IMG/VR virus record: IMGVR_UViG_3300043436_003324
Direction: 5' to 3' (one strand)
From: a virus
DNA: 64,000 nt
In this document: in pieces, positions 15,703 through 22,839 of the stretch
Layout of the letters: every line of letters begins with the position of its first letter
Numbering within the stretch: position 1 is the stretch's first letter
Program-made: the position numbers and the translations under genes
The notes under the pieces: generated by a model
What the model was told of the DNA's origin: nothing
Databases searched by the model: none
Seen by the model: only the letters and a program-made list of their open reading frames with translations

Positions 15703-15813
15703 ATGAAAACAACTAATAGACATATGAACATTTGTAACCCGAGCATTCAGTGGTCGTTTAACGTGTATCGTACGCTTAAGTCGCATAATAGGGCATTTTC
15801 ATTTATAAGTTGA
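15703..15813 (+). CDS. putative attenuator leader peptide 1 (36 aa)
   Basis: MKTTNRHMNICNPSIQWSFNVYRTLKSHNRAFSFIS, double stop TGA TAA, terminator about 30 nt later, then the tRNA array. Confidence 0.65.
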   Translation: MKTTNRHMNICNPSIQWSFNVYRTLKSHNRAFSFIS

Positions 15814-15844
15814 TAAAGATTAACTAAACATATAAGAAATATAA

Positions 15845-15876
15845 GACCCTAACTCAAAACAGTTAGGGTTTTTTTA
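15845..15876 (+). terminator. intrinsic terminator (attenuator) before tRNA block 1
   Basis: ACCCTAACT-CAAAAC-AGTTAGGGT followed by a T run. Confidence 0.8.
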
Positions 15877-15889
15877 TACCCAAAAATTT

Positions 15890-15962
15890 GGTTCCTTAGT
15901 ATAGTTTGGTAATATCCCGGCTTTGTAACCCGGAGTCATCAGTTCGACCCTGATAGGAACCT
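15890..15962 (+). tRNA. tRNA-Thr(UGU)
   Basis: cloverleaf; loop TT-TGT-AA; GTTCGA T-loop; some anticodon-stem mismatches. Confidence 0.8.
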
Positions 15963-16004
15963 CAAACAAAAAGAAAAAGTTCTTTGACATATTGGCTTCA
16001 TAAT

Positions 16005-16076
16005 TCTCCCCTCGTCTAATTGGCAGGACATCTGGTTTTGGGCCAGAGAATCAAGGTTCGAGACCTTGGGGGAGAT
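16005..16076 (+). tRNA. tRNA-Gln(UUG)
   Basis: TCTGG-TTTTGGG-CCAGA anticodon arm. Confidence 0.85.
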
Positions 16077-16080
16077 CAAT

Positions 16081-16166
16081 GGAAGGGTAATCACAACGGC
16101 TTGTGACACCGTCTTGAAAACGGTAGGTACTGAAACATGTATGGGGATCGACACCTCACTCTTCCT
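16081..16166 (+). tRNA. tRNA-Ser(UGA)
   Basis: ACCGT-CTTGAAA-ACGGT; long variable arm. Confidence 0.85.
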
Positions 16167-16175
16167 CTAAAATAA

Positions 16176-16250
16176 CGGGATGTGGACTAATTGGTAAGTC
16201 GCCACTTTTGGGAAGTGGACATCGTCCAGGTTCGAGTCCTGGTATCCCGA
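16176..16250 (+). tRNA. tRNA-Pro(UGG)
   Basis: CGGGA 5' end; CCACT-TTTGGGA-AGTGG. Confidence 0.9.
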
Positions 16251-16265
16251 CTAATAAATAAACAA

Positions 16266-16454
16266 ATGGTAACAAACAAAGAATGTGAGATAATCTCAAT
16301 TAAAGGAAAATTTGAAGGTTTAAATAATTATTACCTAAGTTTATCCAAAATTAGTAAAGACCCAACCTACCGTGGGGATTTAACAGAAGAATTAAAAAGA
16401 GTAGAAACAGAAATAAACCTAAACAATCAAAAACTAATGTCCTATGGAAAGTGA
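16266..16454 (+). CDS. small hypothetical protein
   Basis: likely start ATG 16266 (MVTNKECE...), downstream of tRNA-Pro. Confidence 0.4.
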   Translation: MVTNKECEIISIKGKFEGLNNYYLSLSKISKDPTYRGDLTEELKRVETEINLNNQKLMSYGK

Positions 16455-16472
16455 CAAGTATGACAAACAGAA

Positions 16473-16547
16473 GATCTCGTAGCTCAGTTGGTTTAGAGCA
16501 CTCCACTTTTAATGGAGGGGTCGTGAGTTCGAGCCTCACCGGGATCA
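16473..16547 (+). tRNA. tRNA-Lys(UUU)
   Basis: CTCCA-CTTTTAA-TGGAG. Confidence 0.9.
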
Positions 16548-16590
16548 CAAAAAAATTTGGTAGATTAAAAAAAACCATTAACTTTGTACT

Positions 16591-16806
16591 ATGAATAAAG
16601 TAGAGAAAATTAAAAAAGGACTTCCAAACGGAATGGTTAAGGTTGGGGAAGAATGTGAGAGAGCAATCGTAAGATTGGTTAAACAAGGTAAATCCGAAAA
16701 CGAGGCAACAGAAATTGTTTTGAAACTATTAAAAGATAGTAAACCTTATATTGAACAAGGAATGTACTCTACCACAATTGAAAGTATTAAAATGATAACA
16801 TCATAA
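16591..16806 (+). CDS. small hypothetical protein
   Basis: 71 aa, directly after a TAACTTTG promoter. Confidence 0.5.
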   Translation: MNKVEKIKKGLPNGMVKVGEECERAIVRLVKQGKSENEATEIVLKLLKDSKPYIEQGMYSTTIESIKMITS

Positions 16807-16808
16807 AC

Positions 16809-16882
16809 GCACCTTTAGCTCAGATGGTAGTAGCGGTTGTTTTACATACAACAGGTCACAGGTTCGATCCCTGTAGGGTGTA
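16809..16882 (+). tRNA. tRNA-Val(UAC)
   Basis: GTTGT-TTTACAT-ACAAC. Confidence 0.9.
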
Positions 16883-16886
16883 CAAA

Positions 16887-17006
16887 GGTTGATTGGGGAA
16901 TGATATAACGTTAACGTGTCAGTAGTTCGTAGTTATGTCGGAGTTTTAACTGTCATAGTAACGCCAATCATAAAAGGGGATGTCCACGGAACCATCTTCC
17001 CCTTTC
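16887..17006 (+). ncRNA. unassigned structured RNA
   Basis: TGATTGG/CCAATCA closing stem, then an AAAGGGGA..TCCCCTTT hairpin; GC-richer non-coding stretch between tRNAs. Confidence 0.45.
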
Positions 17007-17013
17007 CTGAATC

Positions 17014-17094
17014 GGGAACTGAAAGTCGTTCGGATACGGCAGCGAAACTGTAAATTTCGTCCTCACGGGAGTGGTTCGAGTCCACCAGGTCCCA
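17014..17094 (+). tRNA. tRNA-Tyr(GUA)
   Basis: CGAAA-CTGTAAA-TTTCG; variable arm. Confidence 0.8.
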
Positions 17095-17102
17095 CAACAA
17101 AT

Positions 17103-17175
17103 GGACAAGTAGCTCAATTGGGAGAGCATCGTACTGTTAATACGAGGGTTGTAGGATCGTACCCTACCTTGTCCG
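17103..17175 (+). tRNA. tRNA-Asn(GUU)
   Basis: TCGTA-CTGTTAA-TACGA. Confidence 0.9.
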
Positions 17176-17181
17176 CAACAA

Positions 17182-17254
17182 GTTCACGTAGCTCAATTGG
17201 TAGAGCGCCGATCTGATACGTCGGAGGTAATGGGATCGTAACCCGTCGTGAACA
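17182..17254 (+). tRNA. tRNA-Ile(GAU)
   Basis: CCGAT-CTGATAC-GTCGG. Confidence 0.9.
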
Positions 17255-17312
17255 CAAAAAGGGGAATAACTTGTGTGGGTGCCTCAACTACTGCAGGAGT
17301 ACCACACTCTAT

Positions 17313-17399
17313 GGAAGATAAACCTTGATGGCGATAGGGTCCGCCTGCTAAGCGAGATGTACCCGTAAGGGGTATTTGGTTCGATTCCAATGTCTTCCT
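17313..17399 (+). tRNA. tRNA-Ser(GCU)
   Basis: CGC-CTGCTAA-GCG; long variable arm. Confidence 0.85.
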
Positions 17400-17403
17400 C
17401 AAC

Positions 17404-17473
17404 TCCCGTATGATCAGGGATCAAAGTTGGCTCATATCCGACTTTAGAGTGGTTCGATACCACTATACGGGAC
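17404..17473 (+). tRNA. tRNA with CAU anticodon (Met or Ile2), shrunken D-loop
   Basis: TCCCGTA/TACGGGA acceptor; TTGG-CTCATAT-CCGA; D-loop of only about 3 nt. Confidence 0.65.
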
Positions 17474-17478
17474 AACAT

Positions 17479-17552
17479 GGTGTTTGTAGCTCAATCGGGA
17501 GAGCGTCGGTTTGTGGAACCGAAGGTAGTGGGATCGAAACCCACCATTCACC
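17479..17552 (+). tRNA. tRNA-His(GUG)
   Basis: TCGGT-TTGTGGA-ACCGA; G-1:C73. Confidence 0.85.
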
Positions 17553-17687
17553 CAAAAGAATTTACAACGGACAAGGCTTAGGCAAGTGAGTTGAGAATGA
17601 GTAGTAGGAGATTTAATCGTTTGGACTACAGAAAGTTTGATACAAGAGATTGGTGGGATGCGAGTGGTTGACCAAAATTCTTTAATT

Positions 17688-17760
17688 GCCCACATAGTTC
17701 AACTGAACAGAATACCCAATTACGGATCGGGAGATAGGAGTTTGAATCTCTTTGAGGGTA
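17688..17760 (+). tRNA. tRNA-Arg(ACG)
   Basis: CCCAA-TTACGGA-TCGGG. Confidence 0.8.
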
Positions 17761-17765
17761 CAACT

Positions 17766-17838
17766 GCCCCCATCGTCCAACTGAACAGGACGTTCCCCTT
17801 CTAAGGGAAAGATCGGAGTTTGAATCTCTGTGGGGGTA
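17766..17838 (+). tRNA. tRNA-Arg(UCU)
   Basis: TTCCC-CTTCTAA-GGGAA. Confidence 0.9.
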
Positions 17839-17845
17839 CAAAACA

Positions 17846-17918
17846 CACATGGTACAGACAAGGTGTCGGTCAGGTCTCCAAAACCTCGACGGGTTAGTTC
17901 GATTCTAACACCATGTGC
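17846..17918 (+). tRNA. tRNA-Trp(CCA)
   Basis: AGGT-CTCCAAA-ACCT. Confidence 0.85.
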
Positions 17919-17963
17919 AAAAATTAATTTTGCCAGTTAAAAAAAATTTTGTATCTTTACAGT

Positions 17964-18458
17964 ATGAAAGACACACTACCATATTGTACTACAGTAAAAG
18001 CAATCAAAGGTTATGAAGAATCCGTAATTGCGAAAAATGAAACCAACGATTGTGTTGTAAGAGCATTTGCATCTTGTTTTGATGTGTCTTACGATTACGC
18101 TCACAAATACGTTAGAGAAAATTTTGGTCGTAGAGATCGTAACGGTACTTATGGTACTGTAGATAAAATGACTAAACTTGCAGAAAATAGAAGTCAAGTA
18201 AACTACAAAAAAGTTAAGTGTGTTGGTAAATTAAACAATTACCGTAGACACACTTTGGAGTACGATGTTAAAGTAAATGGTGAGAGAGTTAAACGTAAAA
18301 TGACTGTGGGTACATTTACAAAACAAAACCCTATTGGGACATTCTTTATGTTGGTTAGCCGTCACGCTTTCACAATCAAAGATGGTGTGGTAATTGGTAA
18401 CCACGAGGATTCAACCAAGAAAAAACGTGTATTACTTCATGCGTTTGAAGTTAAATAA
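17964..18458 (+). CDS. conserved phage protein with NDCVVRA...H motif (possible papain-like fold)
   Basis: start ATG 17964 after a TATCTTTAC promoter variant; Cys...His...Asp pattern. Confidence 0.5.
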   Translation: MKDTLPYCTTVKAIKGYEESVIAKNETNDCVVRAFASCFDVSYDYAHKYVRENFGRRDRNGTYGTVDKMTKLAENRSQVNYKKVKCVGKLNNYRRHTLEYDVKVNGERVKRKMTVGTFTKQNPIGTFFMLVSRHAFTIKDGVVIGNHEDSTKKKRVLLHAFEVK

Positions 18459-18521
18459 GACGGGAGGCGAGAGTTGAGGGTAGAACCGTTAGGATACCTC
18501 AACCAAGTCCTCCCTGAAGAA

Positions 18522-18594
18522 GGACAGGTAGCTCAGTTGGTAGAGCTCAGGATTGAAGATCCTGGAGTCGGGGGTTCGAAACCCTCTCTGTCCA
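18522..18594 (+). tRNA. tRNA-Phe(GAA)
   Basis: CAGGA-TTGAAGA-TCCTG. Confidence 0.9.
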
Positions 18595-18610
18595 CAAATA
18601 AAAAGAAATA

Positions 18611-19066
18611 ATGAACAGAGTATTTAGGACAATTAATGGTGAAGCGATACCTGATGTGGTTAAACACACCTTAGATGTTTTAAAGGAATGTCCTTGGGTT
18701 GAAATACATATCGGTACAGATTCACAAAACCACAGAAGAAGTACCGTATACGTTACGGTAATTGCTTACAGGTATGGTAACAGAGGTGTTCACTACATCC
18801 TTCATAAACAAAAGGTTAAGAAGATTAAAGATAAGTGGACACGTCTTTGGAATGAAGCCGATTATTCAATTGAGGTGGCTGAATGGTTAACTCAAAAAGT
18901 AAAAGTTAAGGTTGAAATAGATTTGGATTATAACTGTGAAGAAAAACACTACAGTTCAAAACTAGTTCCTCCCGTTGTTGGGTGGGCAACGTCGTTAGGT
19001 TATAAATCAAATATTAAACCTGACAATCAAATTGCAACAAGAGCGGCAGATCACCACTGCCGTTAA
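18611..19066 (+). CDS. RNase H-like YkuK family protein
   Basis: IHIGTDSQ...RLWNEADYSIEVA...IDLDYN pattern. Confidence 0.75.
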   Translation: MNRVFRTINGEAIPDVVKHTLDVLKECPWVEIHIGTDSQNHRRSTVYVTVIAYRYGNRGVHYILHKQKVKKIKDKWTRLWNEADYSIEVAEWLTQKVKVKVEIDLDYNCEEKHYSSKLVPPVVGWATSLGYKSNIKPDNQIATRAADHHCR

Positions 19067-19067
19067 T

Positions 19068-19138
19068 GGTCCTGTGTCCGAGTGGTTAGGAGGCGGTCTG
19101 CAAAACCGTTTACGTTGGTTCAAATCCAATCGGGACCT
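19068..19138 (+). tRNA. tRNA-Cys(GCA)
   Basis: GCGGT-CTGCAAA-ACCGT; U73. Confidence 0.9.
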
Positions 19139-19147
19139 CAATAAAAT

Positions 19148-19228
19148 GCCCCTGTGATGGAATGGTAGACATGTCAGATTTAGGGTCTGATGCCGTAAGG
19201 TGTGAGAGTTCGAGTCTCTCCGAGGGTA
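19148..19228 (+). tRNA. tRNA-Leu(UAG)
   Basis: TCAGA-TTTAGGG-TCTGA; variable arm. Confidence 0.9.
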
Positions 19229-19247
19229 CAAACAAAAAAAAGTGAAG

Positions 19248-19490
19248 ATGGAAAAGTTGATGAAAAATAAAGAAGGAGAATACCTATACGTTTTTGATAT
19301 AATTCAAAACGGTAAAGTTGCAGGGTCAAATATTTTGTGGAGTAAGAACTTCATCCAAGTAATGGCGAGTGCAAAAAAAAGATTTGGTAATGTGGATAAT
19401 GAGTCTTTTAAAAGATTAACCAAAGATGAGTACGCAACTATGATCGAGGATCAAAAAACAAAAAAACTTGATAAAAAAAGAAAGTGGTGA
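19248..19490 (+). CDS. small hypothetical protein
   Basis: basic ORF of about 80 aa after tRNA-Leu. Confidence 0.45.
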   Translation: MEKLMKNKEGEYLYVFDIIQNGKVAGSNILWSKNFIQVMASAKKRFGNVDNESFKRLTKDEYATMIEDQKTKKLDKKRKW

Positions 19491-19577
19491 TTTAAATCGT
19501 ATATTGAATATTTATTAATAAAACTTGACACTTTTAAAAAGTATCATATATTTATAACAAAACAAATAAAAACGCAA

Positions 19578-19652
19578 ATGAAAAATTTACATATCATATT
19601 ATTAGGCGGATTGGCGATAGCTGAGGATACTACCTATAAGGAGATGGTATGA
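19578..19652 (+). CDS. putative attenuator leader peptide 2 (24 aa)
   Basis: MKNLHIILLGGLAIAEDTTYKEMV, double stop TGA TAA; GGAGATGG (19640-19647) is complementary to the terminator arm CCATCTCC (19682-19689). Confidence 0.75.
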   Translation: MKNLHIILLGGLAIAEDTTYKEMV

Positions 19653-19676
19653 TAATTTAACACATAATAAATTTTG

Positions 19677-19710
19677 AAAACCCATCTCCAAAAGAGGTGG
19701 GTTTTTTTGT
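19677..19710 (+). terminator. intrinsic terminator (attenuator) before tRNA block 2
   Basis: AAAACCCATCTC-CAAAA-GAGGTGGGTTTT followed by a T run. Confidence 0.85.
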
Positions 19711-19755
19711 TCTTTGAAATTTTGGAAATTAAAAAATAAACAGTATCTTTGTTTT

Positions 19756-20046
19756 ATGATAACATTTGATGATATAGAGTTTAAACCACATGGTATTGGT
19801 AATGGGGTTCACGGATTACTGTTTTTTCCTGGAGGATACGGAATCTCGGTTGTAAGATTTAAATCTCCTTTTGGTGGGGGTGGATCATATACTTCAGATG
19901 ATGATGATTATGAGGTCGCCGTTATTAAAGGAACAAAAGATGATTGGGAAATTTCTTATGACACAAAAATAACTAATGATGTTTTGGGTTATCAAACTAA
20001 AGAGGATATAAATAAATTAATTACTCAAATTTTAAGATACTGTTAA
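19756..20046 (+). CDS. conserved hypothetical phage protein
   Basis: start ATG 19756 after a TATCTTTG promoter; F..GYGISVV...YEVAVI pattern. Confidence 0.55.
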   Translation: MITFDDIEFKPHGIGNGVHGLLFFPGGYGISVVRFKSPFGGGGSYTSDDDDYEVAVIKGTKDDWEISYDTKITNDVLGYQTKEDINKLITQILRYC

Positions 20047-20047
20047 A

Positions 20048-20212
20048 ATGAAAACAAAGGAAAAAAATATCGTACATAAGATGATCTTGGGTAGTCAAAG
20101 AGTTGCTCAAAAAGAACAAGGTTTTTTTGATGGTAGATTTGTTACTAGATCTATGGATTTAAAAAATAATTACACAAGGAAAGAAAAACACAAAAAAAGT
20201 TTGGTAGATTAG
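20048..20212 (+). CDS. 54-aa basic peptide, ArfA-like
   Basis: ...GRFVTRSMDLKNNYTRKEKHKK resembles the ArfA FRQR...SYxRKxKH motif; absent from the ORF track. Confidence 0.4.
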   Translation: MKTKEKNIVHKMILGSQRVAQKEQGFFDGRFVTRSMDLKNNYTRKEKHKKSLVD

Positions 20213-20313
20213 AAAAAACCTTGTATATTTGTAAGACAAACAACGGGGGTAGGAAGTGAGAGGTTGGTGTCCTACTCCCGTGAAGACAGAAGAAGTTCAT
20301 TGAGATAAAAATA

Positions 20314-20398
20314 TAGTGGTTGTAAGAAACGGGAAACTTGTAAAGTACATTAACCTGTTGGCTCAAGATGGTGAAACAAGAGTGTGAGTCAACTACTA
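20314..20398 (+). ncRNA. unassigned structured RNA
   Basis: TAGTGGTTG/CAACTACTA closing stem; follows a promoter, a hairpin and a boxA-like site. Confidence 0.35.
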
Positions 20399-20411
20399 AC
20401 TACATAAATTT

Positions 20412-20484
20412 GTTAGGTGGGCGTAATGAGGGACGGTGCCCGAATCCTATAGGTTGCTTATCCGGTTCGAGTCCGGCCCTGACA
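20412..20484 (+). ncRNA. tRNA-like RNA without a canonical anticodon arm
   Basis: acceptor-like stem and T-arm CCGG-TTCGAGT-CCGG; GAATCC..GGTTGCT core shared with 22463-22545. Confidence 0.55.
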
Positions 20485-20497
20485 AAAAAATTTTAAA

Positions 20498-20621
20498 TAG
20501 GTAAGTGGCGGAATTGGTAGACGCTTAGGTTTATTCCCCGTAAGAAGTCACCGAGATATAGCTGGGGATGTCTCTTGAAAAGGGAACTATATCGTACAGG
20601 TTCGAATCCTGTTTTACCTAC
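20498..20621 (+). ncRNA. Leu-type tRNA-like RNA with about 70 nt between the D- and T-arms
   Basis: TAGGTAA/TTACCTA acceptor, GTGGCGGAATTGGTAGACGC D-arm, ACAGG-TTCGAAT-CCTGT T-arm; no normal anticodon arm. Confidence 0.55.
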
Positions 20622-20703
20622 ATATCGCGGGAGATAAAGTTGATTTCTCTAAAAAAAGTTTGTAGTGATAGGTATTTTTGAGTTTTAATATATATTTATA
20701 TAT

Positions 20704-21297
20704 ATGGAAAAACTTAACAAATATCAGAAAGGGGCACAAACAACAAAGAAAATTTTACAAGAGCGTTCTTTGAAAAATTATTATGATAACCCAAAGATTT
20801 GTAAAAATTGTGGTAAAATAATTGAGGTTAAAGAAAGTGAAAAACCAAGACACGTAAGAAAAAAAACTTTTTGTAATAGTTCTTGTTCTGCGACTTATAA
20901 CAATAAAGTTAGAGAACTGAAAAGAGAAAAAAAAGTAGTTGAAGGTATTAAAAAAGAAAAAAAAGAAAAGTTTGAATTTTTGTTAGATATGACAAAAAAA
21001 GAACTATATGAAAAACACGGAGTTTATTATAAATTTAGGGCTGTAGTTAGAAAACACGCACATTATGTTTTTAATAAACACACAACAAAAAAAGAATGTT
21101 TAATATGTGGATATTCTAATCATGTTGAGGTTTGTCATATAAACTCAGTTTCGTCTTTTGGTGGTGATGAATTAATAAGAAACATAAACTCAATTGATAA
21201 TTTAATCGGTTTATGTCCTAATCATCATTGGGAGTTTGATAACGGAAAAATAGATATATCGCGTGAAGGTGTAATTGGTTGCATGGGACGCTCATAA
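20704..21297 (+). CDS. HNH homing endonuclease with N-terminal Zn-finger
   Basis: CKNCGK...FCNSSC; CLICGY..HVEVCHI...NLIGLCPNHHWEFD; 3' end runs into a tRNA. Confidence 0.85.
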   Translation: MEKLNKYQKGAQTTKKILQERSLKNYYDNPKICKNCGKIIEVKESEKPRHVRKKTFCNSSCSATYNNKVRELKREKKVVEGIKKEKKEKFEFLLDMTKKELYEKHGVYYKFRAVVRKHAHYVFNKHTTKKECLICGYSNHVEVCHINSVSSFGGDELIRNINSIDNLIGLCPNHHWEFDNGKIDISREGVIGCMGRS

Positions 21298-21331
21298 CGT
21301 CTACGGGGTGGTTCAAATCCACGACACGCTA
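21260..21331 (+). tRNA. tRNA-Met(CAU), initiator-like acceptor (C1.U72)
   Basis: GGACG-CTCATAA-CGTCT; CGCG 5' end; lacks the three G-C anticodon-stem pairs of a typical fMet. Confidence 0.7.
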
Positions 21332-21409
21332 CTATAGCAAACCAAGCTTTACTACGATACGGGTAATACCTGTGGGTTAGGGGTGACGGTCAGGAGAGAC
21401 TGACGATTA

Positions 21410-21492
21410 TGCTGACGTACCAGTGGACGCTTATATCGTCTATGACTGTAGTGGTAAGTTTAAAACGTTGGTTCGAATCCAACCGTCAGTAC
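21410..21492 (+). ncRNA. tRNA-like RNA, non-canonical topology
   Basis: 8-bp TGCTGACG/CGTCAGTA stem, GTTGG-TTCGAAT-CCAAC T-arm, nested hairpin GGACG-CTTATAT-CGTCT. Confidence 0.5.
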
Positions 21493-21497
21493 AATAA

Positions 21498-21569
21498 GCG
21501 GGTATCGTATAATGGTTATTACTCCACACTTCCAATGTGGAGATGAGTGTTCGATTCATTCTACCCGCA
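21498..21569 (+). tRNA. tRNA-Gly(UCC)
   Basis: GCGGG 5' end; CCACA-CTTCCAA-TGTGG. Confidence 0.9.
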
Positions 21570-21574
21570 CAAAT

Positions 21575-21647
21575 GGGCCTGATGCCGACGGCAGGTCGAC
21601 TGATTTGCAATCAGATCGTATGGGTTCGATTCCCACAGTGTCCACCA
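21575..21647 (+). tRNA. tRNA-Ala(UGC)
   Basis: CTGA-TTTGCAA-TCAG; G3.U70; encoded CCA. Confidence 0.8.
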
Positions 21648-21878
21648 AATAAACAATTAATACAAATGAATGATGAGAGAAGTTTTATCAGGAACCTCAG
21701 AGTCATCGAAAGTTAAAATGGGTAAAATTAACACGAATACTGACTGGTTGAAGAAACTGAAAAAAACGCTTAATAGAACGAAGTACAAGTTTAGAGTGGG
21801 GAGCGGGTCCCACAAAAAAATTTAAAAAAAGATTTGGTAGATTGAAACAGTTTACATATCTTTGTAATAAAACAAAAT

Positions 21879-21950
21879 GGTCCCATCGACTATCGGTTAG
21901 GTCGCCAGGTTTTCATCCTGGAAAGTCGGGTTCGACTCCCGGTGGGACTA
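21879..21950 (+). tRNA. tRNA-Glu(UUC)
   Basis: CCAGG-TTTTCAT-CCTGG. Confidence 0.9.
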
Positions 21951-22010
21951 CAATGAAATGAACAACATAGCACACAAGTTGTACCTCTACGGTTTTAAAG
22001 TGTGTTTATT

Positions 22011-22086
22011 GGAGATTAGGTCAAATGGTTAAGATGTCGCCCTGTCACGGCGTTCGGAGCGGGTTCGACTCCCGTAATCTCCGCCA
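22011..22086 (+). tRNA. tRNA-Asp(GUC)
   Basis: CGCC-CTGTCAC-GGCG; G73; encoded CCA. Confidence 0.9.
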
Positions 22087-22094
22087 AAAAAAAT

Positions 22095-22181
22095 AGTCAG
22101 GTGGCGGAATTGGATAGACGTAGCCCCATCAGTGGGTAGTGGTGAAAGAAACACATACAGGTTCAAATCCTGTCCTGACTA
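22095..22181 (+). ncRNA. Leu-type tRNA-like RNA with an aberrant anticodon arm
   Basis: AGTCAGG/CCTGACT acceptor, Leu-like D-arm and T-arm; anticodon arm GCCC-CATCAGT-GGGT lacks U33. Confidence 0.55.
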
Positions 22182-22271
22182 CTAAAAAATAAAAATTATG
22201 ACACCAATATTATTTGTATTATTTGTTTTGTTTATCTTTATGGTAAGAAAGAGAAAATAACTCTTTAAAAT

Positions 22272-22358
22272 GCTCGGATGGTGGAATTGGTAGACACGAC
22301 AGGTTTAAGCTCTGTTGACCAGTGGGTTGTGAGGGTTCGAGTCCCTCTTCGAGTACCA
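22272..22358 (+). tRNA. tRNA-Leu(UAA)
   Basis: ACAGG-TTTAAGC-TCTGT; variable arm; encoded CCA. Confidence 0.9.
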
Positions 22359-22366
22359 ACGATAAA

Positions 22367-22453
22367 CTTCAGTACCCGTACCGCCAACGTAGGGTTAAAT
22401 TAGATACAATTTCGTGTTACATTTATGTATGTGCGGGGAGTAGAATGCTGAAG
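22367..22453 (+). ncRNA. unassigned structured RNA
   Basis: CTTCAGTA/TGCTGAAG and CCCGTAC/GTGCGGG stems separated by a GAGTAGAA bulge. Confidence 0.5.
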
Positions 22454-22462
22454 AGTCGGGTT

Positions 22463-22545
22463 TGTCAGGAGTGTAAAGAAGTGTGGTACTGAATCCATCT
22501 GTTAAAGATGGTTGCTCATTGTGGGTTCGAATCCCACCCTGACAT
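22463..22545 (+). ncRNA. tRNA-like RNA, same family as 20412-20484
   Basis: TGTCAGG/CCTGACA, GTGGG-TTCGAAT-CCCAC, GAATCC-hairpin-GGTTGCT core. Confidence 0.55.
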
Positions 22546-22549
22546 CAAA

Positions 22550-22624
22550 GGTCCTATAGCTCAGTTGGTTAGTAGCACTTGACTCATAATCAAGGGGTCG
22601 CAGGTTCGAGTCCTGCTGGGACCA
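22550..22624 (+). tRNA. tRNA-Ile2(CAU, lysidine type) or Met
   Basis: GGTCCT 5' end, CTTGA-CTCATAA-TCAAG, A73; resembles bacterial Ile2. Confidence 0.8.
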
Positions 22625-22694
22625 CAAAAACACTATTTTCTTTTTAAAATAGTATTAATATATTTTTAAAAAAGGGGAGGAATACCCCAAAATT

Positions 22695-22766
22695 GGCTCC
22701 ATAGTTAAATGGATATAACGAATCTCTTCTAAAGATTAGTTCCTAGTTCGATTCTAGGTGGGGCTA
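22695..22766 (+). tRNA. tRNA-Arg(UCU), second copy
   Basis: AATCT-CTTCTAA-AGATT. Confidence 0.85.
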
Positions 22767-22839
22767 CATTTTTTTTAAAAAAATTTTGTACATCTCAGAA
22801 ATTCCCTTATCTTTGTTTAAACCAAAAAACATTAAGGAT

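Follow-up and report, generated by a model that had tools for sequence, protein, structure and literature searches.

A candidate ribosome-mediated attenuator with tRNA-matched leader codons lies between two tRNA gene blocks of an uncultured lake phage

The window analysed here is the whole of a 64,000-nucleotide stretch of viral DNA (IMG/VR record IMGVR_UViG_3300043436_003324). It has a G+C content of about 30%, its genes lack a Shine-Dalgarno sequence, and TAnnTTTG boxes are present. We assign it to an uncultured giant lake phage of roughly 300 kb with hosts of the Bacteroidota type. One relative recorded in IMG/VR (G001) is 99% identical here, a complete relative (G002) measures 304 kb, and the runs whose DNA contains the stretch are lake and freshwater metagenomes. 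In the INPHARED phage collection we found no match to the DNA of 19200-20300 nor to the 851-aa protein, and no cultured relative. Further relatives were collected by pattern searches and protein-neighbour searches of IMG/VR, and 32 distinct versions of the locus were placed in an alignment (A1); these variants are mutually related and hence are not independent samples. In all 32 versions, a short module sits between the same two blocks of tRNA genes, after Phe, Cys and Leu-UAG at the end of block 1 and before block 2 (Table 1).

No canonical tRNA-Ala was called in the window by ARAGORN or Rfam. The sole candidate is a degenerate tRNA-like element at about 21575-21651, missed by both, with a UGC anticodon loop, a possible G3-U70 pair and a weak acceptor stem; a canonical Ala-UGC is present in block 2 of relatives. 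Two other RNA genes of the region are unusual. A long-arm tRNA at 22095-22182 has the anticodon UCA, was called as SeC by ARAGORN and could decode UGA; under the standard code, no long ORF of the window is interrupted. Behind a promoter at 20224, the interval 20245-20620 encodes a structured RNA that ends in a tRNA-like T arm and also shows a Leu-type tRNA whose anticodon arm has an insert of some 50-60 nt. Contigs from lake RNA libraries cover 20086-20446.

Table 1 Features of the two tRNA blocks and of the modules that precede them, with positions in the window.
Feature	Position	Strand	Description
Leader 1 module	15703-15890		36-codon ORF (MKTTNRHMNICNPSIQWSFNVYRTLKSHNRAFSFIS), TGA then TAA; before block 1
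Leader 1 terminator	15846-15869		Followed by tRNA-Thr
tRNA block 1	15890-19229		Thr, Gln, Ser, Pro, Lys, Val, Tyr, Asn, Ile-GAU, Ser, Met, His, Arg, Arg, Trp, Phe, Cys, Leu-UAG
Promoter	19525-19554	+	TTGACA (19525-19530), 16-nt spacer, TATATTTA (TATATT(TA), 19547-19554)
5′ UTR	19559-19577	+	A-rich, unstructured in folds, no Shine-Dalgarno sequence; start inferred from the −10 box
Leader ORF (leader 2)	19578-19655	+	24 codons, then TGA (ORF to 19652) and TAA
Segment 1	19590-19600	+	Codons 5-8; 5′ strand of the putative protector/pause hairpin, predicted to pair with segment 2 and the stop-codon region
Putative sensing zone, codons 7-17	19596-19628	+	ATA TTA TTA GGC GGA TTG GCG ATA GCT GAG GAT
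Segment 2	19640-19647	+	GGAGAUGG; 5′ strand of the putative antiterminator
Intrinsic terminator	19676-19708	+	5′ arm 19680-19688 (segment 3), loop 19689-19693, 3′ arm 19694-19702 (segment 4), T-tract 19702-19708
boxA-like motif	19709-19725	+	GTTCTTTGAAATTTTGG, directly after the T-tract
Next promoter, Bacteroidota type	19722-19751	+	TTG, 19 nt, TATCTTTG; drives the 96-aa gene 19756-20046 and bypasses the putative switch
tRNA block 2	21259-22767	+	Met-CAU, Ile-UAU, Gly-UCC, Ala-like UGC element, Glu-UUC, Asp-GUC, UCA tRNA, Leu-UAA, Met-CAU, Arg-UCU

The promoter of the module is the best sigma-70-like site between 15 and 24 kb (11 of 12 positions) and is kept in nearly all relatives. An earlier note on this DNA, made from the letters alone, had pointed to a TATTTAT motif, which is present at 19549-19555, inside the −10/−7 box. 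It had gone on to describe a leader ORF with a double stop; the 24 codons and both stops are found here, and the double stop is not conserved in relatives. The encoded peptide (MKNLHIILLGGLAIAEDTTYKEMV) is free of C, F, P, Q, R, S and W, as claimed. Searches of Pfam and PHROGs gave no family for this peptide or for that of leader 1, and Rfam gave none for the leader RNA. Between the ORF and the terminator runs a 24-nt AU-rich linker. A mini-ORF (AUG AUA AUU UAA) that overlaps the stop codon behind a Shine-Dalgarno-like AAGGAG was dropped from consideration, as it is not conserved. Translation of the leader ORF is inferred; there are no ribosome footprints. Four public lake metatranscriptomes queried with 18900-20700 contained no contig over 19510-19631 and are uninformative on expression, and one RNA contig, from a relative, covers the terminator only.

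The hairpin at the end of the module is a 13-pair stem (19676-19706) followed by a T-tract, the strongest intrinsic terminator in the region and in line with the earlier proposal; on the + strand we found no terminator between 19706 and 23766. The pairing that had been suggested to compete with it is likewise there: GGAGATGG (19640-19647) and CCATCTCC (19682-19689) are perfect complements over 8 bp, and just 0.6% of shuffled leaders offer 8 bp or more. Segment 3 overlaps CCAUCUCC at 19682-19689. The transcript folds better than all 200 shuffled versions (z = −3.5). We calculated −16.5 kcal/mol for the terminator hairpin and −11.4 kcal/mol for the antiterminator, and a full-length minimum free energy of −33.6 kcal/mol as against −31.5 kcal/mol with the antiterminator forced. 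The full-length fold prefers the terminator by 2.1-3.0 kcal/mol in the window and, averaged over the variants, by 8.6 kcal/mol. The antiterminator helix comprises merely 8 bp, which counts against an attenuator.

Folding of the incomplete transcript predicts a further pairing. Before segment 3 has been transcribed, segment 2 is paired with codons 6-8 in a leader hairpin of −15.8 kcal/mol, and in the predicted folds of 26 of the 32 variants upstream codons hold at least five of its eight nucleotides. The 9-bp P1 helix alone is weak (−3.7 kcal/mol). This protector hairpin is paired in 96% of alignment cells, and its changes are one-sided and of the wobble type, with no double-sided covariation. 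We also masked the footprint of a ribosome on the RNA, with an assumed 3′ edge, and scored formation of the antiterminator. In this model the antiterminator formed as long as the A site had not passed codon 16-18, the exact limit varying with the 3′ edge assumed, and was absent from codon 19 through the stop codon, where segment 2 is buried; the nascent RNA thus folded the helix between segments 2 and 3 (2:3) unless the ribosome stood at codon 18-19 or beyond. According to the model, for which there is no experiment, the position of the ribosome would decide which pairing forms.

Alignment of related genomes, proposed in the earlier note as a check, bears out the conservation of the leader ORF, of the GGAGATGG/CCATCTCC pairing and of the terminator in the 32 distinct relatives, compensatory changes included. 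The ATG is invariant, and the frame of the leader is open in 32/32 variants, compared with 0/32 for the other two frames. The ORF ranges from 20 to 24 codons, and every indel is a multiple of three. Substitutions number 15/21/20 at the three codon positions, with 15 synonymous codon changes versus 31 amino-acid changes, and the invariant 5′ codons show no variation even at third positions. That the frame is kept while the peptide drifts freely argues against a functional micropeptide; as far as an alignment can tell, the conserved property is the act of translation and not the peptide.

Terminator and antiterminator both covary. The terminator is paired in 97.7% of alignment cells, with three pairs changed on both sides. 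The antiterminator (A1 columns 84-91 with 127-134) is paired in 94.9% of cells and also has three compensatory pairs: a G>A with a C>T in L011 (GAAGAUGG with CCAUCUUC), a U>G with an A>C in L005 (GGAGAGGG with CCCUCUCC) and an A-U end pair in L007. In variant L073 a leader of the L005 type occurs together with the common terminator, which suggests an uncompensated intermediate. The observed values were reached by 1 of 500 shuffles, and slid controls paired at 41-64%. Segment 2 is dispensable for the terminator itself, and its covariation with the terminator 5′ arm therefore supports the alternative pairing. Counting against it, the terminator of L007 and L060 is a different one, and its pairing with segment 2 is limited to 5-6 contiguous bp.

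These observations bear on whether the module could be a stand-alone small gene lodged in the tRNA region, encoding a trans-acting small RNA and possibly a micropeptide, with the 2:3 pairing internal to that RNA. The unit is self-contained, measures about 150 nt and has a strong promoter and terminator, the next gene in the window has a promoter of its own, and both the fold score and the preference of the full-length fold for the terminated form would suit such an RNA. We nevertheless consider a stand-alone gene improbable. It does not account for a frame that is conserved when the peptide is not, for a pairing between segment 2 and the terminator arm that excludes the terminator hairpin, or for a position that is fixed in front of boxA and tRNAs in all relatives; neither Rfam nor Pfam has a family for it, and the relation between leader codons and tRNA blocks, to which we now turn, would go unexplained.

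All codons from 7 to 17 belong to families read by block-2 tRNAs (Ile-AUA, Leu-UUR, Gly, Ala, Glu and Asp). The earlier note had counted 11 consecutive codons matching the downstream tRNAs; the codons it listed are correct, and the strict count is 9 of 11, since no canonical tRNA-Ala is encoded here. Among the codons of the phage genes, 62% are block-1-only, 29% are block-2-only and 3.6% are Ala codons. Leader 2 has 11 block-2-only and 2 Ala codons among 23, so that its overall block-2 share is marginal (p = 0.067, or 0.034 with Ala). An 11-codon run of block-2(+Ala) codons occurs in fewer than 5e-6 of random windows drawn from the phage's own genes, and the strict block-2 run of 6, without Ala, has p = 0.01. 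Among 237 ATG ORFs of 20-45 codons in all six frames, the run of leader 2 is the longest, at 11 codons, and the next measures 5. The codon match thus exceeds chance in the permutation check that had been called for, and also in this look-elsewhere test.

Codon class is also maintained over time. Of 25 derived codon states in codons 7-17, 20 stay readable by block 2, against an expectation of 0.42 (p = 1.3e-4), and the class is kept through radical replacements (Ile>Gly, Ile>Glu and Gly>Arg). In codons 18-21 the block-2 bias is absent (3/15), and the switch in codon class at codons 17/18 coincides with the boundary of the modelled footprint. The pattern is not without exceptions. Ten 24-codon variants have TCT or ACA at codon 8, and block-1 tRNAs read most of codons 2-6 and 18-24. 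Two further points count against codon matching: each tRNA species is sampled by only one to three leader codons, and the synonymous drift among GGA, GGT and GGC requires that the Gly-UCC tRNA read all four codons. Covariation of leader codons with rearranged tRNA blocks, a further check suggested at the outset, was found in relatives whose downstream block includes Thr-UGU and Leu-UAG and whose zone contains ACN and CUN codons (L020, L047/48/52 and L064). This clade represents one or two evolutionary events and is thus consistent with the model but not proof of it.

Block 1 is preceded by a module of its own, leader 1 (Table 1), and the composition of this leader is complementary to that of leader 2. 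Its codons are almost all block-1, with no Gly, Glu or Asp and one block-2-only codon in 35 (p = 6e-5), and among the 237 small ORFs it has the longest block-1 run (29; next 24). Leader 1 is kept in relatives with a shuffled order of residues. Its antiterminator is weak in the window (UAGGG with CCCUA, 5 bp) and clearer in some relatives only. When the two leaders were compared with the two blocks in six genomes, each scored with its own tRNA blocks, Fisher tests gave p values from 2e-5 to 1.5e-3; the six genomes are related, and the tests are therefore not independent.

The codon data are what distinguishes the tRNA-matched reading from a general translation-coupled attenuator, which would serve as a timing device or capacity gauge and would owe its codon composition to some other cause. 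The evidence for an RNA switch is identical for the two. Single codons per tRNA species, the breaks in the block rule at codons 2-6 and codon 8 and the marginal overall block-2 share would all be at home in a general gauge. Such a gauge gives no reason, however, why the 11-codon run should be unique among 237 small ORFs and end at the footprint boundary, why codon class should survive changes as radical as I>G, I>E and G>R, or why leader 1 should be complementary in composition. We regard it as unlikely, while not setting it aside.

The boxA-like motif that follows the T-tract links the module to host rRNA operons. Its consensus GTTCTTTGACATNTTGG is present in numerous Bacteroidota genomes, within the spacer that separates the 16S and 23S genes of rrn operons: at least 41 among 81 bacterial hits, largely from Bacteroidota, lie 250-860 nt past the 16S 3′ end, and in a Pedobacter rrn contig (L102, 2545-2561) the motif is found between the spacer tRNAs and the 23S gene. 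In relatives of the phage, it stands before tRNA arrays. We take its core, GTTCTTTGA(A/C)A, to resemble the boxA of E. coli rrn operons (GCUCUUUAACA). On the strength of the rrn position and of this presumed likeness we read the motif as a host rrn antitermination signal, and the phage has probably borrowed it as a boxA antitermination site; there are no data on NusB/NusE binding or on antitermination. A full-text search for the motif returned irrelevant matches only. We note that the motif GTTCTTTGA(C/A)AT(A/T)TTGG is also present at 15980-15996 in the window. For its signal to be obeyed, an attenuator must come ahead of a boxA site, which is the order seen here.

Three layouts were seen downstream of the module. 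In the first (six variants), the terminator is followed by boxA and then, after 26-31 nt, by a tRNA, with only the boxA-like motif between. The second has the order terminator, promoter, boxA, tRNA; a promoter separates the hairpin from boxA in 13 variants, and boxA abuts the hairpin in about half of all variants. The third, that of this window, runs from terminator and boxA to a promoter and protein genes (96 aa and 54 aa), followed by more RNA genes, an HNH endonuclease gene and the tRNAs; the next-promoter arrangement recurs in relatives. Protein genes take up 1.55 kb between the module and the first tRNA, an interval that also has three or more internal promoters. The earlier note had cautioned that promoters at 19744, 20224 and 21857 could bypass the module. 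TAnnTTTG boxes are present at all three places and the caveat holds; with these promoters intervening, the switch would merely add to their supply, and its control of the tRNAs is at most partial here. The terminator might in addition be ignored by polymerases that come from block 1, should these have been modified at the boxA-like site of that block.

The close spacing of hairpin and boxA could point to something simpler, namely a plain terminator or insulator of the block-1 operon, or a nut-like boxA stem-loop, in which the ORF and the 8-bp complement are incidental. In E. coli rrn leaders, a boxB hairpin lies just upstream of boxA, and the variants in which hairpin and boxA abut recall that arrangement. 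We give this explanation very little credence, as the hairpin has a full T-tract and a dedicated promoter 150 nt upstream, the ORF and segment 2 are kept with compensatory changes, and a promoter comes between hairpin and boxA in the 13 variants mentioned above. Taken jointly, the codon-class pattern and the covariation of segment 2 are explained by none of the three rivals.

Related architectures occur in other phage lineages. We scanned IMG/VR for the boxA-like motif and scored eight leader families. The leader peptides of these other lineages have 25-36 codons. At loci L219, L223, L239, L248, L253, L282 and L287 the leader ORFs are unrelated, use 14-18 different amino acids in 25-35 residues and are followed by a terminator, the boxA-like motif and a tRNA array. 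The best complement between the leader and its own terminator arm has 6-9 bp and lies within about 20 nt of the stop codon in seven of the eight families (for example, L239, L281 and L282); in L223, a 9-bp antiterminator comes right after the stop codon (AGUUCGGGU with ACCCGAACU). The best pairing in L287 is 4 bp and far from the stop, with no clear antiterminator. Leader codons are readable by the downstream tRNAs above expectation in all eight families (combined p = 1.8e-5).

Taking the evidence together, we favour, with moderate confidence, a ribosome-mediated leader-peptide transcription attenuator that lies before the second tRNA block and provides codon-matched feedback on tRNA supply. 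Its anatomy, conservation, covariation and codon statistics are observed; that the leader is translated, that transcription and translation are coupled, the direction of the response and its trigger are all inferred. Coupling has not been shown in these hosts, which counts against this reading. On the attenuator model, the promoter would give rise to a short RNA whose 24-codon ORF is translated. Before the terminator is made, codons 5-10 would hold segment 2 in a hairpin, which may also pause the polymerase, and a ribosome entering the ORF would melt this protector. A ribosome that reaches codon 19 or later, or the stop, would cover segment 2, so that the terminator forms and transcription ends at about 19708. 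Were the ribosome delayed at any point up to about codon 17, segment 2 would be left free to pair with the terminator 5′ arm, and the polymerase would continue through the boxA-like site in the direction of the tRNA genes. As codons 7-17 are read by block 2, slow decoding of any of them would raise transcription of the corresponding tRNA genes, a negative feedback. Read-through is thus inferred to increase when block-2 tRNAs are short, for example, after attack by an anticodon nuclease.

The proposed switch has parts in common with several known systems. It shares with trpL the 1:2, 2:3 and 3:4 geometry, of which the 1:2 pairing is only predicted here, and, in the footprint model, the covering of segment 2 by a ribosome that has reached the stop codon; it differs from trpL in an antiterminator of 8 bp, in the lack of tandem regulatory codons and in its target genes. 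The leaders of ilvGMEDA (Ile/Leu/Val) and thr (Thr/Ile) similarly combine a short translated leader with protector (only predicted here), antiterminator and terminator pairings, let the position of a stalled ribosome decide read-through, and sense more than one kind of codon. Unlike in those operons, tRNA genes rather than biosynthetic enzymes lie behind the switch, at least six tRNA species are sampled one to three times each and not in runs, and the setting is a phage of a Bacteroidota-type host, without Shine-Dalgarno sequences and with a boxA-like site after the terminator. Classical attenuators use runs of the same codon. No match to Rfam leader families (Trp_leader, His_leader, Thr_leader, Leu_leader and others) was found in 19559-19714 at E values up to 1, and the element shows no relationship in sequence to the classical attenuators. 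The pheST leader (pheM) and T-box riboswitches also tie genes of the translation apparatus to the supply of tRNA or charged tRNA; pheM senses one amino acid and controls a synthetase, whereas here the tRNA genes themselves are the output, and T-boxes, which are not typical of Bacteroidota, recognize uncharged tRNA by direct binding and need no ribosome. With rrn boxA and lambda nut sites, the locus shares the motif core and a full match to the Bacteroidota 16S-23S spacer element; here, by contrast, the motif follows a putative attenuator and precedes phage tRNA arrays.

The statement that no attenuator of this kind had been described for a phage tRNA operon stands, in that our full-text searches found none for phage tRNA genes. 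Phage tRNA genes are usually seen as passive helpers of codon usage or as spares against tRNA-cleaving defences. We suggest, tentatively and with somewhat less than even confidence, that large Bacteroidota phages run a homeostatic circuit on their tRNA arrays, in which each array follows a codon-sampling leader with one codon or a few per encoded tRNA species, an antiterminator/terminator pair and an rRNA-type boxA, and lack of any single tRNA switches on the block able to replace it; this would be the first case of leader-peptide attenuation controlling tRNA genes and a sensor of tRNA-targeting immunity. If so, the phage would measure the host tRNA pool and top it up on demand, and the shortage could stem from host shut-off, tRNA decay or anticodon-nuclease defence. 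Attenuation would gain a new output, tRNA genes, and a new design of many codon kinds in one to three copies each, and would extend to a phylum whose ribosomes use no Shine-Dalgarno sequence. An attenuator placed before a boxA-like site would further show a decision point that precedes the polymerase's resistance to termination.

Two observations concern the DNA around the leader promoter. A palindrome (GACACTTTT-A-AAAAGTATC, 19527-19545) occupies the promoter spacer and part of the −35 box; a distant clade retains it in the altered form GACTTTT...AAAAGTC, and a dimeric DNA-binding protein may use it as an operator. In relative G001 (L001, 580-1268), two extra paralogous genes for acidic proteins of 110 aa are found just upstream of the leader promoter, inserted at a point that corresponds to about 19512-19524 of the window; the leader of G001 differs from that of the window solely by a change of ACT ACC to CGT TCC.
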